DNA of 9,182 nt from a virus (IMGVR_UViG_2651869781_000012), one strand, 5' to 3'. Counted from the stretch's first letter, positions 252-9,182 are shown. Notes: generated by a model from the sequence alone, not told the origin. Numbers and translations: made by a program.

Positions 252-794
252 TTACTTGTCTTTATCCGGCTGAAACTTATCAGGCACATTTCCGGTAGTT
301 TCCATCAGATAATCGGACAGCATTCGCGGGATGTTTTCATCAAGTTTTGTGCATGCGTTACAGGCTCTGACAACTTCTTTTTTCAGGCCATCCAGCATGA
401 CGGGGGTCATCTGTGGGAAGCTCCTTTGCATAGTAAGCGGGAGGCTGTCCATGATTGATGAAATCTGACTCGCCAGTTTTGAAAGCGCGTACATGCAAAA
501 CTCTGTATCAATCACGTCACCGCGATCGCGCTCGTTTTTAAGTTCCTGCGCCTCCGCCTGTGCTGTCAGTAATCTGATCCTGACTCGTAAGAGTTCATCA
601 TCATCAATCTCGCCTTTGTCGTTTGTAAGCTGGCTAATTGCATTGTTAACCCTATTGTCTATCACGCTGGCAACATCATAAAACGCCTCACGGCCTTTAC
701 GTTCAACGGGAGTCACTCCCCACTTGTCGAATGCTGTAGCACTTACCCGGCAGCTTTGCGCCATGGTTTTTTTGTTCATCAGGTGCGATTTCAT
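252..794 (-). CDS. Terminase small subunit, lambda Nu1-like
   Basis: 180-aa ORF. The C-terminal two thirds resemble lambda Nu1 as recalled from memory (ours ...LTAQAEAQELKNERD...FCMYALSKLASQISSIMDSLPLTMQRSFPQ...IPRMLSDYLMETTG versus lambda ...LTRAQADAQELKNARD...FCTFVLSRIAGEIASILDGLPLSVQRRFPE...IPGLLSEYIEQSG). The N-terminal HTH region is alignable but divergent. ATG at 794 is preceded by a weak GGGA; in-frame alternatives are TTG at 797 and ATG at 779 or 764. The gene starts about 135 bp downstream of cosN, as in lambda. Confidence 0.85.
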   Translation of the reverse strand: MKSHLMNKKTMAQSCRVSATAFDKWGVTPVERKGREAFYDVASVIDNRVNNAISQLTNDKGEIDDDELLRVRIRLLTAQAEAQELKNERDRGDVIDTEFCMYALSKLASQISSIMDSLPLTMQRSFPQMTPVMLDGLKKEVVRACNACTKLDENIPRMLSDYLMETTGNVPDKFQPDKDK

Positions 795-822
795 CAATAT
801 CCCAACTTGGTCAAGGTTTCAG

Positions 823-838
823 GTTGGTGTGTTGGTGT
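823..838. repeat. Tandem direct repeat GTTGGTGT x2 in the cosB-equivalent interval
   Basis: Plus strand 823-830 and 831-838 are both GTTGGTGT. A nearby (ACC)n tract lies at about 881-896. Both sit between cosN and the Nu1-like start. Confidence 0.5.
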
Positions 839-927
839 TATCTTTCCCTTTTTATTCATGGAGATAGAGCAAACAACAAAACCACCACCACCACCCTGAA
901 AAAGCTCATAAATAGCGAAAAACCGCG

Positions 928-939
928 AGGTCGCCGCCC
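928..939 (-). other. cosN-like cohesive-end site (lambda-type cos)
   Basis: The minus strand reads GGGCGGCGACCT, identical to the lambda 12-nt cohesive end as I recall it. Flanks on both sides also resemble lambda: cosQ side GGGTCCTTTCCGGCGATCCGGTAGGCTACG versus lambda GGGTCCTTTCCGGTGATCCGACAGGTTACG, and cosB side CGCGGTTTTTCGCTATTTATGA versus lambda CGCGGGTTTTCGCTATTTATGA. Confidence 0.8.
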
Positions 940-995
940 CGTAGCCTACCGGATCGCCGGAAAGGACCCGCCAGCCAGAACGGGCCCTAATTTCA

Positions 996-1379
996 TCAAC
1001 CAATCAACTTATAGCGACCATCCCGTGCATTGCGACGTACACGCTCAATCTTGAGGCATAGCGCCGCATCTGGCTTTTTTGGGACAGGTACGCGGCAATA
1101 TTCAGAAGCTCGAGGAATATTGTTTATCCAGTCGATCACTTCACTTAAATACCAGGCCTTACGCCCTTCCGTAACCTGTACGCGCTCGGGGAACTCTCCG
1201 CGAGCCTCAAGGTTTAGCAATGTGCGACGGCTAAGGGTAGTAAGTTCCATCACCTGATTCATATCAACAAGGCGTTCACTTAAACGCATTTTGTCAGCAA
1301 TAGCCTTTAATTCCTCTACTGCTGGATCCGGATACATCATTTCGGCAATTGGCTTAAGGTCATTGTAATGATTCTGCAT
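996..1379 (-). CDS. AlpA-family HTH DNA-binding protein (127 aa), function unknown
   Basis: Residues about 40-87 (LTTLSRRTLLNLEARGEFPERVQVTEGRKAWYLSEVIDWI) fit the AlpA/excisionase-type HTH pattern. SD AGGGGGA lies 4 nt upstream of ATG 1379. It starts 11 bp after the D-like stop and ends about 55 bp from cosN. Confidence 0.7.
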   Translation of the reverse strand: MQNHYNDLKPIAEMMYPDPAVEELKAIADKMRLSERLVDMNQVMELTTLSRRTLLNLEARGEFPERVQVTEGRKAWYLSEVIDWINNIPRASEYCRVPVPKKPDAALCLKIERVRRNARDGRYKLIG

Positions 1380-1390
1380 TGTATCCCCCT

Positions 1391-1732
1391 TTACACACGA
1401 GCCAGCGGCTGAACAGAAATACCTGAGCCAACAAACGCGGCAACCTTTGCCGACAGTTCTTTTACAGACTCAGGCCAGTTCAGAGCATCAACATTTAAAA
1501 CACCTGTCTTATAAACCTGTGCCTGTGTTTTTTTCGCTGTGTCGATTTGTACAGCGGAAACATAAACCGCTTTGCCTGCGCTCGTTCCATCCCATACCAC
1601 TAGCGCACCAGTTGCATCTTCCTGCATCAGTGGCGTAAACGCAGGTATTACCCCTTTATTGGCTGAAAATATCCCCAGCGTAGTAACCAGTGCTTCAGTG
1701 CCAGACATGAGTTCAGTGTAATGAGTAGCCAT
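1391..1732 (-). CDS. Head decoration protein, lambda gpD-like
   Basis: 113 aa. TPLMQEDATGALVVWDGTSAGKAVYVSAV and ...NWPESV...AAFVGSGISVQ parallel lambda gpD [29 protein letters not shown] and ...LWPEAA...TAFAGTAISIV (from memory). SD GGGGGAG precedes the ATG; the start is 9 bp after the capsid gene stop. Confidence 0.85.
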   Translation of the reverse strand: MATHYTELMSGTEALVTTLGIFSANKGVIPAFTPLMQEDATGALVVWDGTSAGKAVYVSAVQIDTAKKTQAQVYKTGVLNVDALNWPESVKELSAKVAAFVGSGISVQPLARV

Positions 1733-1741
1733 TGCTCCCCC

Positions 1742-2788
1742 TTAGCCAATGCGAACGGTAACAAAACGATTGATGCGGGCCGGTATTGGCTGTGGTGCTG
1801 AATGTGTCTGCACATATTCAATAGCCGGATCACCAGGCACAATATAGTTTTTCGGTACAAGTTCGGCTTTAGTCAGCCCCATCCGGATTAGCTCCGGATC
1901 CTGAATACCGCCATAAGCGACAATCCCCTGAAGAGCCGTATTGCCAAGCACCATCAAATCAGGATCAAGGAAATATTTTTCAGTTCCGTCCTCGTCGGTA
2001 TAACGCCCGCTGTAAACAACAATCGCAACATCGCCCATATACCCTTTAAAACTCACCGAATCACCAAGGTCTTTAAGGGCCGTTTCCAGTTCGGAATTAG
2101 AACCACGACGAGTATCCAGAGCCTCTTTTATCGCCCTGAATGAACGGTATTTCTTCCATACATTACCGCCCATAATGATAATATTAGTGACGCCCTCACT
2201 AAATTCTGCGTAGCTCTCAATATCATCATTTGGATCAAAAGCTTCTTTATCCTTACCTGACCACTCAGCACCGCCAGACTGAGTGATGATATTTTGTGGT
2301 TTAATATTCCAGTCCAGCTCATAACGTTCAATACCATCGCCCTCAATGATATTTTTCCCCGTTGTGATTGCCTGAACGGCAAGCCATTCAATACGTGCAC
2401 GAATAGCTTTAGCCTGATTTACAATCGCCTGTTTAACTTTAATATTACGCGCTCCAAAAGCATTGTATTGCTCAGGTGATACACCAGCAGGGCGCACAGC
2501 TAACTTATTTGGATCAATGCTGCTTTTCGGTTTCATATAGCCAGGGCGAATTGTTTTTGATTCGTATCCCTCATCTCGTGAAACTTTACTGCCCACCATA
2601 GGAGAGCAAAACGCCGCGATCGGGATATTTGGATCGTCGATCGTATCAAGAATAATGTCTCTCGATTCAAACATTACCGAGCGAGTGAAAAACAAACTGG
2701 TAAACAACGCATTTAATTTTTTTTGCACATCTTCAGCATTAGCCACCTGCACAAGCTGTGTAGGCGAATATAAGTCAACCATACTCAT
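1742..2788 (-). CDS. Major capsid protein, lambda gpE-like
   Basis: Long identical runs with lambda gpE as recalled (ITQSGG.EWS..DK...DP.DDIE.YA...GV.NII, FRSF.A.KE.LDTRRGSNSELETA.KDLG..VS.KG..GDVAIVVYSG.Y, MVLGNT). Both proteins begin MSM. Start at 2788 (MSM) or 2782; AAGAGG sits 6 nt upstream of 2782. The six-frame ORF's 5' extension to 2869 is unlikely to be coding. Confidence 0.9.
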   Translation of the reverse strand: MSMVDLYSPTQLVQVANAEDVQKKLNALFTSLFFTRSVMFESRDIILDTIDDPNIPIAAFCSPMVGSKVSRDEGYESKTIRPGYMKPKSSIDPNKLAVRPAGVSPEQYNAFGARNIKVKQAIVNQAKAIRARIEWLAVQAITTGKNIIEGDGIERYELDWNIKPQNIITQSGGAEWSGKDKEAFDPNDDIESYAEFSEGVTNIIIMGGNVWKKYRSFRAIKEALDTRRGSNSELETALKDLGDSVSFKGYMGDVAIVVYSGRYTDEDGTEKYFLDPDLMVLGNTALQGIVAYGGIQDPELIRMGLTKAELVPKNYIVPGDPAIEYVQTHSAPQPIPARINRFVTVRIG

Positions 2789-2955
2789 CCTCTTTACATT
2801 CATTACAAATAATTGTGAATATATTCTATTACCGATGTCTGCTATGCGAATACATGCAACCAAGTGCAATGTTGTATAAAATATGCCGTGACAACTTCAG
2901 TGCTGATAATTCGTGTTAATGTATTTACTTCCTTTGGTCGGGATTTATGTAGCAT

Positions 2956-2994
2956 GCCGGAAAATCTATTTTTTTCCGGCATCTTTTTGTTTGC
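2956..2994. terminator. Candidate intrinsic terminator between the SSB-like gene and the head genes
   Basis: Stem GCCGGAAAA(2956-2964) / TTTTCCGGC(2972-2980) with a short loop, followed on the plus strand by ATCTTTTTGTTTG. The minus-strand version lacks a clean U-tract, so function for the SSB transcript is uncertain. Confidence 0.4.
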
Positions 2995-2999
2995 AGAAT

Positions 3000-3422
3000 T
3001 TAAAACGGTATATTATCGCCGTACGGATCATCATTCCCCGACTGTTGTTTTGCCCTGTTCAGTGCGTCAGTGGCCTGCCCCTGCTGGCCTTTTTTGCCGC
3101 CCGGTCGCGCTGTTCGCGCACTGATCACGCTGTCTGCGATAACCTGCCAGCCCTGCCGCGTTTCGCCGTTCTGGCCTGTCCACTGGCTTACCTGCATGTT
3201 ACCCGCCACGCTCACCAGTTCGCCTTTGTGGTGTTTTGCCAGTGCGTCGGCCTGTCTGCCAAACGCCAGGACGGATAACCACATCATCGCCGTTCCGTCA
3301 TCTGCCTGGCTGCACGGAAGGGGGACCGCCATACTAGCCATCGCCATTTGTGTACCCTTGCTGGTGGTCTTTAACTGCGGGTCAGCCACCAGCCGTCCGT
3401 AAGCCGCTATCTGTGCTGTCAT
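3000..3422 (-). CDS. Single-stranded DNA-binding protein (SSB)-like, OB-fold with C-terminal IPF tail
   Basis: 140 aa. The N-terminus (AAYGRLVADPQL...) and core (WLSVLAFGRQADALAKHHKGELVSVAGNMQVSQWTGQNGETRQGWQVIADSV) follow the SSB OB-fold pattern. A Gly/Gln-rich linker precedes a C-terminal ...DDPYGDNIPF, reminiscent of the E. coli SSB DDDIPF tail. The ATG overlaps the upstream stop (ATGA). Confidence 0.75.
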   Translation of the reverse strand: MTAQIAAYGRLVADPQLKTTSKGTQMAMASMAVPLPCSQADDGTAMMWLSVLAFGRQADALAKHHKGELVSVAGNMQVSQWTGQNGETRQGWQVIADSVISARTARPGGKKGQQGQATDALNRAKQQSGNDDPYGDNIPF

Positions 3423-3664
3423 GCTGTCTGCTCTCCGGTTTTAACGTTGATGGTTGTCACCTGTTCCGCTTCGGCAATCTCCCGTTCTGTCAGCGTGGCA
3501 AAGTTTGCAGCTGCCGTTGTCATGAATGCGCTAATCAGTTCGGGATGTGCTTTCGCATATCCTTCCCCGGCGTTGCGGTCGATGATTTTTATCGACACCC
3601 TTAACCAGTGTTCCGTCAAATCAAGGGCGTGCGATTGTGATTTTTTTGTGTGCTTCGCTGTCAT
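3419..3664 (-). CDS. Hypothetical protein (81 aa), translationally coupled to the SSB-like gene
   Basis: ORF in the same operon orientation with a stop/start ATGA overlap at 3419-3422. No recognisable motif; the upstream SD is weak. Confidence 0.55.
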   Translation of the reverse strand: MTAKHTKKSQSHALDLTEHWLRVSIKIIDRNAGEGYAKAHPELISAFMTTAAANFATLTEREIAEAEQVTTINVKTGEQTA

Positions 3665-3707: not shown

Positions 3708-3940
3708 CCCTTCACCTGTTCACCTTTTGATATTTTATCTTTTAATTCATAATGTTAAGGGGTGAACAGTTTCACAAAAACTATTCACCAACTGTTCACC
3801 ACTGTTCACCCTTGAAGCTCAATAAACAATCAAAAAGGTGAACAGTGAATAGTTTGGTGAACAGTTCATAAATAACTGTTCACCCTATAATATACTGATA
3901 TAAAAGATATTTATAACAGGGTGAACAGTGGTGAACAGTT
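3708..3940. repeat. Iteron cluster, P4-type origin-like (TGTTCACC octamers in both orientations)
   Basis: TGTTCACC at 3717-3724, 3793-3800, 3803-3810 and 3877-3884. Reverse complement GGTGAACA(G) at 3761-3769, 3837-3845, 3856-3864, 3920-3928 and 3930-3938. Degenerate copies near 3708-3716 and 3783-3789. AT-rich spacers; begins immediately after the primase stop at 3952. Confidence 0.7.
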
Positions 3941-3951
3941 ATTCCATAAGT

Positions 3952-5769
3952 TTAATTTTTGCTATCGTCATTAGTGACCGATACACATGATGGCATCCAG
4001 TCTTCTGATTCCTCCGTCAGTGTCACGTTTGAACGCAAACCGTGCTTCGTTTTCCGTTTCATATACTCCCTGCCATATTCCGCCATTGCCCCCGGCATAT
4101 CTTTACCGAAGCGCGTCAGTGTTACAGGTTTACCAAACCCATGTGCCTTCATATAAGCCAGATAGGCATGATAGAGATACCTGCGCGGGCTGAATGGCAC
4201 AATTTCAGCATTACCCACTAACAGGCCATCACACATTACCGACGCCATGAGATAGCCGCAGAAGTCCACCAGCGAATCACCTTCACGCTTTATCGCGAGT
4301 GCTTCTTCTGATTTCTGCTGCTCATATAAAAGGCGTCTGGCTTCGTCCTGGTCAGCAAACCGTGTAAGCAGATGACGAATCACTACCGCCAGCTCACCTT
4401 CTATTTTTTCCGCCAGCATTGAATCGCGTTCGTTCTCCGGTACAACTTCCGAAAAATTGAATATCACCCGACGGCGCGAGATCCCCCCACTGCGGTCACT
4501 GAATGACATAGCGTTATTGTTAACCGCCAGCACTACTGCCGGGATACGCGTTGAATATGGGGCTTTATGTTTCGGGTCGATTGCCACCTTGTCACCGCCT
4601 GTAATAGCCTTAATTCCCGCCCCATCACCAGCGTAGCGGGTCATATCCGGCATGATAATCAGCGAAAAGCCAACCACTAACGCGCGTTCCCTTGCATCTT
4701 CCAGCGCCTTCATGCTCGCTGATACTGTATTAGCCTTACCCGCCAGCATGGTGCAAATCTCCGCCATCACGCTTTTACCACTTCCCCCTGGACCTGTTAC
4801 CTCAATGAATAACTGCCAGTCGTACCGGTTCGCCAGCACCATGAATAATGCAGCCAGTACGCGATCCGCCTTGCGGTCATTCTCAGCCACCGAACGGCGT
4901 AACCACTTCCAGAAATTCGGCGCATGTGTTGCCAGCGTTTCCCCCTCTGCTGGTGGGCTGAAAGGTAATTCACTGGCAATTAACAACCAGTCGTTTTTGT
5001 TATGCTCCCGAAAATTACCTGTTCTGGTATCAAATACCCCGTTACTGAATCCAATCAGGTTACGGGCTGTATTCCCCATTACAGGCAAACTTAACTTCAT
5101 GGTATCGACCGCCGATTTAATGGCGTTCTGCGAATAGCTGATCTCCGCATCAATGAAAATCTGCGCCATAGCACGCTGTAACTCTTTATCCTGAACCGGC
5201 TCCCATACAACGCCGTTGTAATGGTGAACAGTGTCAGAGTCGGCATGAATCGCCAGTTCACCGCCATAATGTGCCAGGAGAACTTCGCCGCGTTGACTTG
5301 CTCCCATCTGGTTAAGCGCCAGTGATGAAGCGTTATCGTCTTTTACCCGCTCTTTTTTCTTTACAGGCAGTTCAACTACCTTTTTCTTTTCCGCCAGCTC
5401 TCCCCGCTCACGTTCCAGATATTCGCGCCAGTTCTCCCGTTTCTGGCTGTGCATTCCTTCAGGGTAATAATCAGCATCCCTGACACCTGCCGCTGCCAGT
5501 TTCTGCCCGATGGTATTAACAAGCCCCGGACGCAATAACCCCGCCTGGTAGAGACGCACGCGATAGCGTCCGTCCGGTACGATTTGCAGGTTGTCCAGTT
5601 CGGCAAGTTGTTGCTCTCCAAGCCAGACAGGTGGCACGTTATCGCCAGCCAGTCGCCCGTCCTGTTCCTGCCACTGCTTCGCATGTGCCCACGCATCACT
5701 ACCCGCAAAAATGATGACTTCCGTCATTTTGTCACGCGGCTGGTGTTTTAAATTTGGCGCTTTTTTCAT
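3952..5769 (-). CDS. Phage/plasmid primase-helicase, P4 alpha-like (SF3 helicase domain)
   Basis: About 605 aa. Walker A GPGGSGKS lies in the context FIEVTGPGGSGKSVMAEI, typical of P4-family primase C-terminal/D5-type helicase domains. ATG 5769 has GGAGAGAG upstream and overlaps the upstream gene stop (ATGA). The six-frame track start at 5784 is a GTG. Confidence 0.9.
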   Translation of the reverse strand: MKKAPNLKHQPRDKMTEVIIFAGSDAWAHAKQWQEQDGRLAGDNVPPVWLGEQQLAELDNLQIVPDGRYRVRLYQAGLLRPGLVNTIGQKLAAAGVRDADYYPEGMHSQKRENWREYLERERGELAEKKKVVELPVKKKERVKDDNASSLALNQMGASQRGEVLLAHYGGELAIHADSDTVHHYNGVVWEPVQDKELQRAMAQIFIDAEISYSQNAIKSAVDTMKLSLPVMGNTARNLIGFSNGVFDTRTGNFREHNKNDWLLIASELPFSPPAEGETLATHAPNFWKWLRRSVAENDRKADRVLAALFMVLANRYDWQLFIEVTGPGGSGKSVMAEICTMLAGKANTVSASMKALEDARERALVVGFSLIIMPDMTRYAGDGAGIKAITGGDKVAIDPKHKAPYSTRIPAVVLAVNNNAMSFSDRSGGISRRRVIFNFSEVVPENERDSMLAEKIEGELAVVIRHLLTRFADQDEARRLLYEQQKSEEALAIKREGDSLVDFCGYLMASVMCDGLLVGNAEIVPFSPRRYLYHAYLAYMKAHGFGKPVTLTRFGKDMPGAMAEYGREYMKRKTKHGLRSNVTLTEESEDWMPSCVSVTNDDSKN

Positions 5770-6065
5770 TTCTGCTCTCTCCACGCGGCAATCATGTTTT
5801 TCAGTTCCTGTAGTTTTTTATCCACATCCACACGTGACACATGGTTATTTCTGGAAGTCGGGATTTCCCGCCGGAATCTGCAAATAAAGATCTCCACGTT
5901 CAGCGAACTAAGAAATGAATATCCATCACGGATAAAATAAACACGGTCAAACATCAGTTCTTTTACCGTTACTCTGTTACCGTTCTTATCCAGATAAATA
6001 GCGCCGGGGATAATTTTGTGGTGTGCATAACCGCTGGCAGTCAAGCCAGATAAATATGTTCTCAT
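5766..6065 (-). CDS. Hypothetical protein (99 aa), operon member upstream of the primase
   Basis: ATG 6065 with GGGGA upstream; its stop overlaps the primase start. No recognisable motif. Confidence 0.6.
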   Translation of the reverse strand: MRTYLSGLTASGYAHHKIIPGAIYLDKNGNRVTVKELMFDRVYFIRDGYSFLSSLNVEIFICRFRREIPTSRNNHVSRVDVDKKLQELKNMIAAWREQK

Positions 6066-6071
6066 GATTAT

Positions 6072-6392
6072 TTATCCCCGATTTGAATCAGTATTCGCTT
6101 TCTTTATGGCATTTAATGCATCTGTGGCATTTTCAATGGTGCACCGTAACGAAATATCAAACTGCCCAAGCATTGCCAGTAACAAACCGATATTACCCAT
6201 ATCAATGCGCATGGCCTTTTCGTCATAGTCCTCATTTTCTGACGCATGCCACATCAGGCTACCAATTGACGCAATACCCATTGATATATTGTCAGTAGCC
6301 CCATCCGCAGCGGAATAAACCTTTTTAGCAATATCATGCTCACAGTTAAAATGCGGATTAATCAGGTACTGGTAACTGGTCATGTCAGGCAT
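6072..6392 (-). CDS. Hypothetical protein (106 aa)
   Basis: ATG 6392 is preceded by AGGGGG at 6 nt spacing and overlaps the upstream ORF stop by 8 nt. No recognisable motif. Confidence 0.6.
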   Translation of the reverse strand: MPDMTSYQYLINPHFNCEHDIAKKVYSAADGATDNISMGIASIGSLMWHASENEDYDEKAMRIDMGNIGLLLAMLGQFDISLRCTIENATDALNAIKKANTDSNRG

Positions 6393-6588
6393 GGAACACC
6401 CCCTGACGAATACGGGCAGTAAATACCATCACGCAGCCATCAGGAGATTGCTGGCGAGCTTCCTGTTCGCTGGTGGCCTCAATGTGAATCACGCGCGGTT
6501 GTGCGGTGCTCAGGGCGATAAAACGCCAGATGTATTTATTCAGGTTGTGCGAGTCCCGCCCTTGCGGGTGTGTGGTATGATTTAACAT
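6385..6588 (-). CDS. Hypothetical protein (67 aa), first gene of the primase operon
   Basis: ATG 6588 is preceded by GAGGT at 4 nt spacing. This is the C-terminal 67 codons of the 306-aa six-frame ORF, whose upstream part overlaps the plus-strand genes and promoter region and is probably not coding. Confidence 0.5.
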   Translation of the reverse strand: MLNHTTHPQGRDSHNLNKYIWRFIALSTAQPRVIHIEATSEQEARQQSPDGCVMVFTARIRQGVFHA

Positions 6589-6673
6589 AGCTACCTCGAT
6601 ACGCTTTCTATCGTTGGTGGTTAGAAGCCCTGCGAGTGGTAACGACACTTGCGGGGCTTTGCATTTATGCACC

Positions 6674-6757
6674 TTGACAACCTCAAGGTGTGGCCCACTA
6701 CATTCTTTAGGTGTGGCCCACGTCAAGAGTTTTATTTGTGCTTTTTCTGTGTATACT
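6674..6757 (+). promoter_or_regulatory. Divergent promoter/operator region with two copies of GGTGTGGCCCAC
   Basis: TTGACA at 6674-6679. Direct repeats GGTGTGGCCCAC at 6687-6698 and 6710-6721, each containing the near-palindrome GTGGCCCAC. TATACT at 6752-6757 lies about 30 bp upstream of the RHH gene ATG. The region sits between divergently oriented genes at 6588 (-) and 6788 (+). Confidence 0.4.
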
Positions 6758-6787
6758 GTCCCCCACCAATCCAACAGAGGAATAGAA

Positions 6788-6967
6788 ATGGCAACGGGTA
6801 CAACAAACGCAAAATCACAAGCTCTAAAGGCTCGTGTACCACACGAAATAGTAAACGCCATGGAATCAGTGAAAGAATCAGGCGAAAGCACATCACAATT
6901 CATCATTGCGTCAATGCAAGGCGAGATCAAACGCCGCCAGCGACGCAAAGCCAAGGAGTCAGAATAA
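6788..6967 (+). CDS. Ribbon-helix-helix (CopG/Arc-like) DNA-binding protein, 59 aa
   Basis: AGAGG at 6776-6780 precedes ATG 6788. The sequence KSQALKARVPHEIVNAMESVKESGESTSQFIIASMQGEIKRRQRR fits a beta-strand plus two helices RHH layout. Transcribed divergently from the primase operon. Confidence 0.6.
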   Translation: MATGTTNAKSQALKARVPHEIVNAMESVKESGESTSQFIIASMQGEIKRRQRRKAKESE

Positions 6968-7024
6968 TCACTATCAGCGCCGTGGTGTGAGTAACTACGG
7001 CGCATTGCTATGCAGGTGCTTACC

Positions 7025-7204
7025 ATGAACGATAAAGAGTTAAAAAAAACACCACCACAAACACTGAAAGGACAGCGCAAAAAGATAGCGCATGAGCATG
7101 AATCAGAAAGATTCGCCCCCTGTTCTTTTGCTCTTGAGAAATTCCTTAAGGAGCACAAGAAAAAGCTATCATTGCAAACCTGGGAACGAACCGAATCTGA
7201 CTGA
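7025..7204 (+). CDS. Hypothetical small lysine-rich protein (59 aa); coding status uncertain
   Basis: ATG 7025 is preceded by AGGTG (7014-7018). It lies between the RHH gene and the plus-strand terminator. Highly charged, no recognisable motif. An alternative ATG is at 7010. Confidence 0.3.
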   Translation: MNDKELKKTPPQTLKGQRKKIAHEHESERFAPCSFALEKFLKEHKKKLSLQTWERTESD

Positions 7205-7268
7205 TCAAATTGCCCACCAGCCAGCAAATCGCTATGATGTTCGGGCTTATGTTTAGTGTTTTCCCATT

Positions 7269-7297
7269 GGCGACCGCCCCCGGTCGCCTTTGTTTTA
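7269..7297 (+). terminator. Rho-independent terminator
   Basis: Stem GGCGACCG(7269-7276), loop CCCC, stem CGGTCGCC(7281-7288), then TTTGTTTT(7289-7296). It lies between convergent plus-strand genes and the alpA stop at 7316. Confidence 0.6.
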
Positions 7298-7315
7298 TAT
7301 GTCATATGCTCCCCT

Positions 7316-7525
7316 TTACGCTGCCTTACCTGAATTAATGCGATCCCGGCTTTTAACCCATTCCATAACCTCGGACAGCAGCCAACCTACAGAACGCCCC
7401 CCCAGATTAAGACGTGACGGAAAGCATCCTTTTTTCTCCAGTTCATAGCGTGTAGTGCGACACACTCCAGTTAACTTACGACATTCATCCTCACGGATTA
7501 CGCGATCTTCATTTATTTCACGCAT
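7316..7525 (-). CDS. alpA: AlpA-family transcriptional regulator
   Basis: 69 aa. LTGVCRTTRYELEKKGCFPSRLNLGGRSVGWLLSEVMEWV matches the AlpA HTH pattern. Same orientation as the integrase, with an AT-rich upstream region. Confidence 0.85.
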   Translation of the reverse strand: MREINEDRVIREDECRKLTGVCRTTRYELEKKGCFPSRLNLGGRSVGWLLSEVMEWVKSRDRINSGKAA

Positions 7526-7943: not shown

Positions 7944-9182
7944 TCAAGAATTTTGGGTGTAAATTCGCGGGGCCATAACAACGATTTTTTCATCATTGTT
8001 CTGGAGAAGCTCGAGACGGTCTACCCATAGATTAAGAGCATCACGTTTTGCATCAAGATAACGGGAGTGATTATAGACTCGTTGCATCCCCGGCATCTGG
8101 TGGGCGGTAAGCTGCTCGACAATATGCGGATCCACGCCTAAATCGTTCAGCATGGTTGTAAATGTGTGCCGGATGTCATGCAACGACCAAGGGGCTTGAT
8201 TAATGCGTCTGTGTGCCGTTCTTCCGTACTCTGATACGGATGATTGCCCTTTCAGTTCTCCAAGCAATAAGCCCGTGTGCCTGTTCTTCTCCACCAGCTT
8301 CGTGACGAACGGCAAAATGCTTTCCGGTATTGGCCTGAATATGGCGACCTTCGTTTTGCTGTGCTCCTTCGGTACTGTCCAGAGCATTTCTTTAAAATCC
8401 CACTCCTGCACCTCAGAGCGCCTTAGCTCGGTGGTACGGCATCCAAAAACAATCAGGAGGCGAATTAGGGCGCTGTAGTACGGCGGGAATATTTTGTCAT
8501 CCAGAGCGCGGAGTAATTCCCCAAGCTCCTTGTTTGTTAGTACGCGCTCGCTCACTTCTGCTTTTTTTCCCACATCACCGACAACCATATCATCAAGAAC
8601 GTTGCTGATTGCGTATCGTCGTTTTCGGCAGTACTTAAGCGCCTGTTTGCATACCTGTAGCAAAAATCCGGCAGATACCGGGCTTCGCTTTGCCATCTGG
8701 TCAAAACATGTCAACCAGTGCCGTAGCTCGCATTTTTCCAACGGCATAGCGCCAATCTGGCTGATTATGTGTTTATTGATCCGGCTTTTCAGTGATTCGT
8801 AGTCAGTGCGCTTTTCCTTTGCATACGATTCAAGCCAGTAAGTAAGCGCTTCCTTAACTGTCACGGGGGCTAACGCATCCTGTACAGCACGATTAAGCTC
8901 ATAGCGCGGATTTTTCCCCTCAGCCAGCCAGGCGCGACACTGTGCTGCTTTTTCCCTGGCTGCTTTCAGGCTCAGATCGGGATAATTGCCCAGTCTCAGA
9001 CGTTCCGGTGATACCTGCCTACCAGTTCCGGCCCTGTAAGTGAAATACCAGGTTAACAGGCCGCTGGTGGAATGTCTTACGCTAAGATTGCCACCGTCAT
9101 TAAAAAAGGCGTTTTTTGTGGTTGGTGATCCGCTTAATTTTCGTAAAAGAGTGTCGCTAAGTCTATGAATTGCGCTGCTCAT
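7944..9182 (-). CDS. int: Tyrosine recombinase / integrase, P4-type
   Basis: 412 aa. The N-terminal arm-binding-like region (DGGNLSVRHSTSGLLTWYFTYR...LGNYPDLSLKAAREKA) and C-terminal catalytic motifs (HDIRHTFTT; ...QRVYNHSRY) fit the family. The ATG is the last three bases of the window, so an upstream start cannot be excluded. Confidence 0.9.
   Translation of the reverse strand: MSSAIHRLSDTLLRKLSGSPTTKNAFFNDGGNLSVRHSTSGLLTWYFTYRAGTGRQVSPERLRLGNYPDLSLKAAREKAAQCRAWLAEGKNPRYELNRAVQDALAPVTVKEALTYWLESYAKEKRTDYESLKSRINKHIISQIGAMPLEKCELRHWLTCFDQMAKRSPVSAGFLLQVCKQALKYCRKRRYAISNVLDDMVVGDVGKKAEVSERVLTNKELGELLRALDDKIFPPYYSALIRLLIVFGCRTTELRRSEVQEWDFKEMLWTVPKEHSKTKVAIFRPIPESILPFVTKLVEKNRHTGLLLGELKGQSSVSEYGRTAHRRINQAPWSLHDIRHTFTTMLNDLGVDPHIVEQLTAHQMPGMQRVYNHSRYLDAKRDALNLWVDRLELLQNNDEKIVVMAPRIYTQNS

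Follow-up and report, generated by a model that had tools for sequence, protein, structure and literature searches.

The closest described system to the locus studied here is EcCICFT073, the prototype Gram-negative PICI (Fillol-Salom et al. 2018, PMC6092414). Helper-dependent induction, replication and high-frequency transfer have been documented for this island with lambda and phi80 (PMC6092414, PMC10530653), and its Pri-Rep protein was shown to melt and unwind the origin (PMC6092414). In the same study, the rep-ori segment alone maintained a plasmid in DH5alpha, and deletion of the capsid or decoration homologue did not relieve the interference with lambda (PMC6092414). The EcCICFT073 genes follow the order int, HTH (alpA), Icd-like, DUF4222, primase-family protein (Pri-Rep), ori, an 85-aa hypothetical protein, SSB, PerC, capsid and decoration, with the 85-aa and SSB genes at NC_004431 1384284-1384948. 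A 2023 survey placed primase, SSB and DUF5906 genes, together with the ori, in the 'Replication' category of PICI genes (PMC10111431).

We focused on the corresponding gene pair in a 9,182-nucleotide stretch of DNA from a virus (IMGVR_UViG_2651869781_000012; hereafter, the window). Judged by its gene layout, the window is a Gram-negative PICI of the EcCICFT073 type (Table 1). Such islands were recognised by a size of ~9-12 kb, a terminal integrase, alpA, an iteron ori placed after the pri-rep gene, one-directional transcription, few packaging or capsid genes and the lack of tail and lysis genes. The window has this layout: the listed genes, like every substantial ORF, are all on the minus strand and are collinear with EcCICFT073. 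The integrases hold the same position in related islands, and in a related genome (NZ_CP160108) the same segment lies in an integrase-bounded island between a tRNA-Ile gene and nfeF, indicating site-specific insertion. The 81-aa protein of the window is 88% identical to the 85-aa protein of EcCICFT073; the two SSBs are 69% identical, that of EcCICFT073 ending in ...DDPYGDDIPF and differing in its linker by an indel. A PerC gene follows the SSB gene in EcCICFT073, whose record annotates no terS, whereas the window has a Nu1-like TerS gene and a second AlpA-like gene.

Table 1 Features of the window and of related loci. Plain positions refer to the window; L numbers are loci carrying relatives of the pair.
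Feature	Position	Strand	Evidence or description
Late/hijacking module	252-2869	-	Pfam Phage_cap_E, HDPD, Phage_AlpA, Phage_Nu1; PHROGs 29, 49, 2790, 57
Nu1-like TerS (small terminase)	252-797	-	
Second AlpA-like HTH protein	996-1379	-	
Lambda D-like decoration protein	1391-1732	-	
Lambda E-like capsid protein	1742-2869	-	
Palindromic GC-rich hairpin	2954-2982	.	18 nt after the SSB stop; terminator scan and folding
SSB	3000-3422	-	Predicted OB-fold domain (~1-100), short basic Q-rich linker of variable length, D-x-I-P-F tip
Putative translational-coupling junction	3419-3436	-	GGAGAG (3436-3431), 8-nt spacer, ATGA; direct sequence reading
81-aa gene	3419-3664	-	PHROG 1231 match, homologue searches, AlphaFold2 model; predicted alpha-helical hairpin
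Replication origin	3715-3940	.	At least 11 iterons GGTGAACAGT in both orientations around AT-rich spacers; repeat families D1-D3, inverted pairs I18-I24
Pri-Rep replicase	3952-5784	-	Pfam D5_N, DUF5906, Pox_D5; PHROG 864; SF3 helicase and origin binder
DUF4222 protein	5766-6065		
306-aa ORF	6385-7305	-	ORF listing
AlpA regulator	7316-7525	-	Pfam Phage_AlpA, E 9.1e-16
Tyrosine integrase	7944-9182	-	ORF; 23% identity to P4 Int; island end
SSB-lineage gene in L039	NZ_OY754392 77397-77819		Directly after DUF927 replicase; ProQ/FinO-family RNA-chaperone gene next
D5_N/DUF5906 replicase beside 81-aa relative	L002, L017, L019, L029, L032		
DUF927 replicase, with or without Toprim, beside 81-aa relative	L003, L004, L006, L026-L028		
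VapE replicase beside 81-aa relative	L014, L031		
Prim-Pol + DUF3987 replicase beside 81-aa relative	L023		
PriCT_2 + AAA_25 replicase beside 81-aa relative	L037		

The preliminary description of this DNA had set the locus against P4, a framing that does not hold. In tblastn searches with all P4 proteins, homologues were found in the window for Int (23% identity), the AlpA-like orf88 (45%) and alpha (48%, over residues 290-771 only, the N-terminal primase third being absent), and none was found for sid, delta, psu, epsilon or cnr. Unlike P4, the window carries lambda-type capsid, decoration and TerS genes, and its gene order and small gene pair are those of EcCICFT073. With those five P4 genes absent and the primase part of alpha missing, we rejected a P4-like satellite identity. 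The accompanying remark that P4 is not known for carrying an SSB was correct: P4 lacks an SSB, and it also lacks any member of the 81-aa family.

In Pfam searches Pri-Rep gave no Toprim, AEP or zf-CHC2 (zinc-finger primase) match; its RefSeq label, 'DNA primase family protein', is therefore possibly an overstatement. The sole match of its first ~117 residues was to PHROG 2850, whose function is not described. The iteron origin lies between the Pri-Rep gene and the 81-aa gene, directly upstream of the latter, and its layout agrees with the PICI ori described previously (PMC6092414). Scans of the ten largest ORFs gave no tail or lysis family, and an Rfam scan of the window, which covered P4-type C4/isrK immunity RNAs, returned nothing at the gathering score. 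Near the start of the window, positions 21-175 match the cos-end regions of E. coli siphophages, with positions 1-39 of the phage Tritos record corresponding to 54-92 of the window at 97%; this stretch, adjoining the Nu1-like TerS gene, is probably the cos site of the island. Several small genes are annotated in the zone of the 306-aa ORF in related islands; one encodes an Icd-like cell-division inhibitor, and another, a YlcI/YnfO gene, is transcribed divergently.

The two genes are minus-strand ORFs of 81 and 140 codons' worth of protein, respectively, both located where the preliminary description had placed them. The tetranucleotide ATGA (3422-3419) is common to the stop codon of the 81-aa gene (TGA, 3421-3419) and the start codon of the 140-aa gene (ATG, 3422-3420), and the ribosome site of the latter lies inside the upstream gene; on the minus strand the junction reads AACCGGAGAGCAGACAGCATGA. 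The identical 4-nt overlap is annotated in EcCICFT073 and NZ_CP160108. The overlap and the GGAGAG motif form the arrangement expected for translational coupling, as had been proposed. Cluster-level homologues of the SSB numbered 750 at E<=1e-10, and those of the 81-aa protein comprised 164 close-homologue clusters, or 686 representatives at E<=1e-3 in an exhaustive profile search with 50% clustering; neither ORF is therefore a chance reading frame.

On the mRNA strand, the hairpin downstream of the SSB gene has a predicted folding energy of -17.3 kcal/mol (z -3.3), and no U-run follows it. Its T-run is found on the plus strand only, where it gives a terminator-like match, and a canonical rho-independent terminator after the SSB gene was thus rejected. 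The hairpin marks the border between the replication and capsid modules, as a boundary and not as a textbook terminator. A scan for sigma-70 promoters inside the ori gave none for the pair at the threshold used, and we therefore assume that transcription continues from Pri-Rep into both genes. Jointly with the accessory role discussed below, we consider it fairly probable that the two genes form the distal end of the early replication operon (int <- alpA <- ... <- Pri-Rep <- ori <- 81-aa <- SSB).

Profile searches indicate that the 140-aa product is a bona fide yet divergent member of the SSB family, consistent with its initial description as an SSB-like protein of a phage satellite. It exceeded the cut-offs of both Pfam PF00436 (E 1.7e-15, 57.4 bits, cut-off 26, profile positions 4-101 of 104) and NCBIfam TIGR00621 (59.3 bits, cut-off 53.95), and 24 solved SSBs in the PDB matched at E<=1e-3, the best with an E value of 2.9e-10. 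We infer its OB fold from these matches, both those to the family profiles over their full length and those to SSBs of known structure. Pairwise alignment gave 26% identity to E. coli SSB. In E. coli SSB, the residues W40, W54, F60 and W88 stack on ssDNA, and His55 contributes to tetramer stability. W48, F54 and W81 of the island SSB align to W54, F60 and W88, so three of the four stacking aromatics are kept; the W40 equivalent is missing, its loop being shorter and without Trp, and the His55 position is occupied by Leu. The latter two differences count against assuming an E. coli-type oligomeric state and binding mode.

In overall architecture the island protein resembles E. coli SSB, with a full-length predicted OB-fold domain followed by a disordered linker and a D-x-IPF tip. 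It is shorter (140 aa versus 178 aa), and its linker is ~35 residues long and basic/Q-rich, compared with ~60 residues rich in Gly/Gln/Pro in E. coli SSB. The IPF-type C-terminal tail noted in the preliminary description is clear: the protein ends in ...DDPYGDNIPF, and D-x-IPF is conserved across the family. In an alignment of 16 diverse island-family SSBs, W48, F54, W81, D136, P139 and F140 were invariant and I138 was conserved in at least 90% of the members, whereas the linker between domain and tip showed indels. Invariant aromatics and tip with a variable linker are the pattern expected if DNA binding and partner binding are under selection.

The lineage of this SSB is essentially restricted to islands of enterobacteria. 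A search of 50,697 phage records detected no close relative, the best matches being Staphylococcus and Streptococcus phage SSBs with <30% identity. Only 52 of 72,556 plasmid records matched, mostly non-mobilisable ones, and ~10 of these did so at >=60% identity. Descent from a conjugative plasmid or a phage was rejected on these grounds. The SSBs of temperate phages and plasmids are likewise borne by mobile elements, carry a host-compatible tail and sit in a replication or early module; they are unlike the island SSB in that its best phage matches are Gram-positive ones and its plasmid matches few.

The 81-aa protein had been described as lacking recognisable features. This stands for the curated libraries: Pfam, NCBIfam, PADLOC and PDB sequence searches gave no match, no DNA-binding family including helix-turn-helix was matched, and a profile built from 33 aligned sequences found nothing in the PDB. 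It does not stand more generally, as the protein matches PHROG 1231 along its whole length (E 2.3e-49, function not described) and belongs to the 686-member family noted above, most representatives of which are 70-110 aa long. By these searches, the family is a wide one without an entry in curated libraries. The 164 clusters of close homologues are confined to the Enterobacteriaceae, and tblastn against the 2025 INPHARED set found no homologue in a cultured phage. The family core reads ...A(I/V)xxID..FGxGYAKxHPEL(I/V)xAFMxTAAxDF, with D29, G35, Y36 and L43 invariant in 44 diverse sequences.

An AlphaFold2 model built with the 44-sequence alignment had a mean pLDDT of 77.7, with 10-residue blocks over residues 11-60 at 81-95; with 24 close homologues as input, the pLDDT was as low as 62.8. 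The predicted helices span residues 3-32, 36-39 (a short turn helix) and 41-79, forming a helical hairpin, and the protein may be oligomeric. Fold searches gave no functional lead. The model resembles four uncharacterised proteins of uncultured Caudovirales in BFVD (24-30% identity, probability 0.87-0.98), and neither these nor PHROG 1231 have a described function. P4 Cnr and other P4 proteins were rejected as homologues, the best E value being 0.71 with --max (cnr/orf106 included).

An SSB carried by a satellite of this kind is not unusual. Of 5426 complete E. coli genomes, 1672 (~31%) contain a match to the 801-bp segment, which is already annotated there as 'SSB' and 'hypothetical', and PICI SSBs already have their place in the 'Replication' category (PMC10111431). 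Among 60 evenly sampled E. coli matches, both genes were covered in 52, the SSB gene only in 3, the small gene only in 3 and neither in 2. The pair is thus part of the ordinary, annotated equipment of a class of E. coli satellites that is very common and has been studied experimentally. What remains new is that the literature searched contained no experiments on either gene, including on PICI SSB function, and that the 81-aa family is broad and without a curated-library entry.

We favour, with moderate confidence, the reading that both genes are accessories of the early replication operon of the island, the SSB being functional and island-specific and the 81-aa protein a separate factor. This reading is supported by the SSB-family membership, the constraint on aromatics and tip, and the position behind ori and Pri-Rep on one strand, in a unit that has the ATGA coupling and is closed by the hairpin, as well as by the same pair in the same place in EcCICFT073, by the presence of both genes in 52 of the 60 sampled E. 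coli matches and by the replication category of the PICI survey (PMC10111431). The restriction of the Pri-Rep match to residues 290-771 of P4 alpha and the varied replicases beside the 81-aa relatives also count in its favour. The maintenance of a plasmid by rep-ori alone (PMC6092414) argues that the 81-aa and SSB genes are accessories that are non-essential for replication. Host SSB evidently suffices there, so that any benefit of a second SSB would be quantitative.

Under such an accessory role, the helper phage would induce the island, and Pri-Rep would melt the iteron origin and unwind the DNA. The island SSB would then coat the ssDNA exposed at forks and around the ori, while the replication of the helper and that of the island are competing for host SSB. 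The C-terminal tip of E. coli SSB binds host partners such as the Pol III chi subunit, DnaG and PriA, and the host-type D-x-IPF tip of the island protein could recruit the same kinds of partners. As Pri-Rep has no recognisable primase domain, recruitment through the tip may matter and could be especially useful here. The argument for DnaG recruitment is weakened by the SSB also occurring with a DUF927 replicase (E. coli F719, L039), a type that elsewhere has its own Toprim primase (L006). The 81-aa protein would be a separate accessory, a small helical hairpin that is co-translated with the SSB in the present clade.

The company kept by the wider 81-aa family bears on what this second accessory might act upon. 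We compared loci of the family, 22 from species-representative genomes and 13 from metagenome and assembly look-ups. The recurrent neighbours of the 81-aa relatives are an integrase, an AlpA or HTH_17 gene and a replicase, with the small gene positioned after the replicase or before it and overlapping AlpA (L026-L028); in L037 it follows the HTH_17 gene. In addition to the replicase types listed in Table 1, a RepA-type replicase is found beside the 81-aa relative in E. coli RM9975 (L040). As the family accompanies unrelated primase-helicases, its target would probably be common to all of them, such as a host replication or repair component or DNA. We therefore regard, with low confidence, a shared host component or DNA as the most likely target, rather than the SSB or a particular replicase. 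A broader proposal is that the family is a generic replication or host-takeover factor of integrative islands, for example an adaptor or inhibitor of a conserved host replisome or repair protein, which became coupled to an SSB in enterobacterial PICIs as a two-part ssDNA-handling unit. It would explain the company of at least six unrelated replicase families, and we regard it as tentative and rather unlikely.

The same loci speak to the idea that the two proteins are obligate partners, with the 81-aa protein serving as a modulator or adaptor of the SSB that caps its tip, loads it at the ori or bridges it to Pri-Rep, the coupling setting their stoichiometry. The overlapping ATGA together with a strong ribosome site located within the upstream gene, the identical overlap in EcCICFT073 and NZ_CP160108 and the joint presence of the two genes in the matched region of 52 of the 60 sampled E. 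coli records would all fit. Each gene is also found by itself in E. coli. F719 has the DUF927 replicase, an ori, the SSB gene and a ProQ/FinO gene and no 81-aa gene, and RM9975 has a RepA-family helicase, an ori and an 81-aa homologue with the same C-terminal tail and no SSB gene, which makes an obligate complex unlikely. Beyond E. coli, phmmer searches with the island and E. coli SSBs as queries (E<=0.1) found no SSB-like ORF within 5-6 kb of the distant 81-aa relatives at ~30 loci (L003-L023, L026-L038), including those of Raoultella, Xenorhabdus, Nitrosomonas and Verrucomicrobia, and an SSB partnership conserved across the wider family was rejected. Of the 'partner' relationship suggested in the preliminary description, the gene order within one clade is thus what stands, and the 81-aa protein is better described as an independent, widespread companion of mobile-element replicases than as an SSB partner. 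Obligate pairing in the present clade is accordingly an improbable account of the two genes.

A role of the SSB in conflict, in which it titrates host SSB-interactors, hinders replication or recombination of the helper, or triggers or blunts SSB-sensing defence, also appears unlikely. Its tip is strictly conserved and its OB domain is 26% identical to that of the host SSB, which fits a protein that has kept partner binding and perhaps does not co-assemble with host SSB. The lineage is essentially island-specific (50,697 phage records; ~10 plasmid records at >=60%), and interference functions are known on PICIs (PMC6092414). The gene sits, however, in the replication operon beside the ori, outside the variable accessory/interference region, and PADLOC-DB gave no match for the SSB, the 81-aa protein, four distant 81-aa relatives, Pri-Rep or two neighbouring small proteins. 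The interference by EcCICFT073 has also been ascribed to redirected helper packaging, in a paper without mention of an SSB (PMC6739421).

Very improbable is a reading in which the 81-aa protein has no link to ssDNA and acts as a small regulator of early transcription or of the replication of the island, be it in a Cnr-like copy-number or initiation role or as an AlpA co-factor, which its gene immediately beside ori or replicase in many islands, its overlap with the AlpA gene (L026-L028) or position after the HTH_17 gene (L037) and its small (~80 aa), helical and possibly dimeric model might suggest, but against which stand the absence of similarity to any P4 ORF, cnr/orf106 included (best E 0.71, --max), the absence of a helix-turn-helix or other DNA-binding family match, and the company of non-homologous replicases, which argues against a replicase-specific regulator.

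The pair gains interest from the abundance of these islands. PICIs of the EcCICFT073 type carry virulence and defence genes between strains, and they matched about one third of the complete E. coli genomes searched. Their replication has so far been reduced to 'Pri-Rep plus ori', and two conserved genes sit directly behind that ori. If the SSB raises copy number, or if its IPF tip brings DnaG and Pol III to a primase-less SF3 helicase, this would help to explain how satellites out-replicate their helpers. The 81-aa protein is the more open question of the two, as a member of a broad unannotated family tied to varied mobile-element replicases.

Some members of the 81-aa family were found in other settings. 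A minority of the relatives look chromosomal: one lies between gap and pgk in a Desulfobulbaceae MAG (L020, 4941-5258), another adjoins groEL in a Verrucomicrobiae MAG (L007, 4962-5207), and a third is beside methyltransferase and oxidoreductase genes (L034, 1329-1562). The relatives beside gap/pgk and groEL indicate that the family is not strictly tied to mobile-element replication, and it may not be restricted to mobile elements. In Shigella flexneri CP182556 (L002, 5207-5683), the 81-aa homologue is followed by an SSB gene that seems to be disrupted, with only a C-terminal fragment ORF (5522-5683) matching the island SSB. In two further proteins, P0321 (179 aa) and P0300 (205 aa), the 81-aa core is fused to an N-terminal extension, which in P0321 looks GIY-YIG/T5orf172-like by eye.
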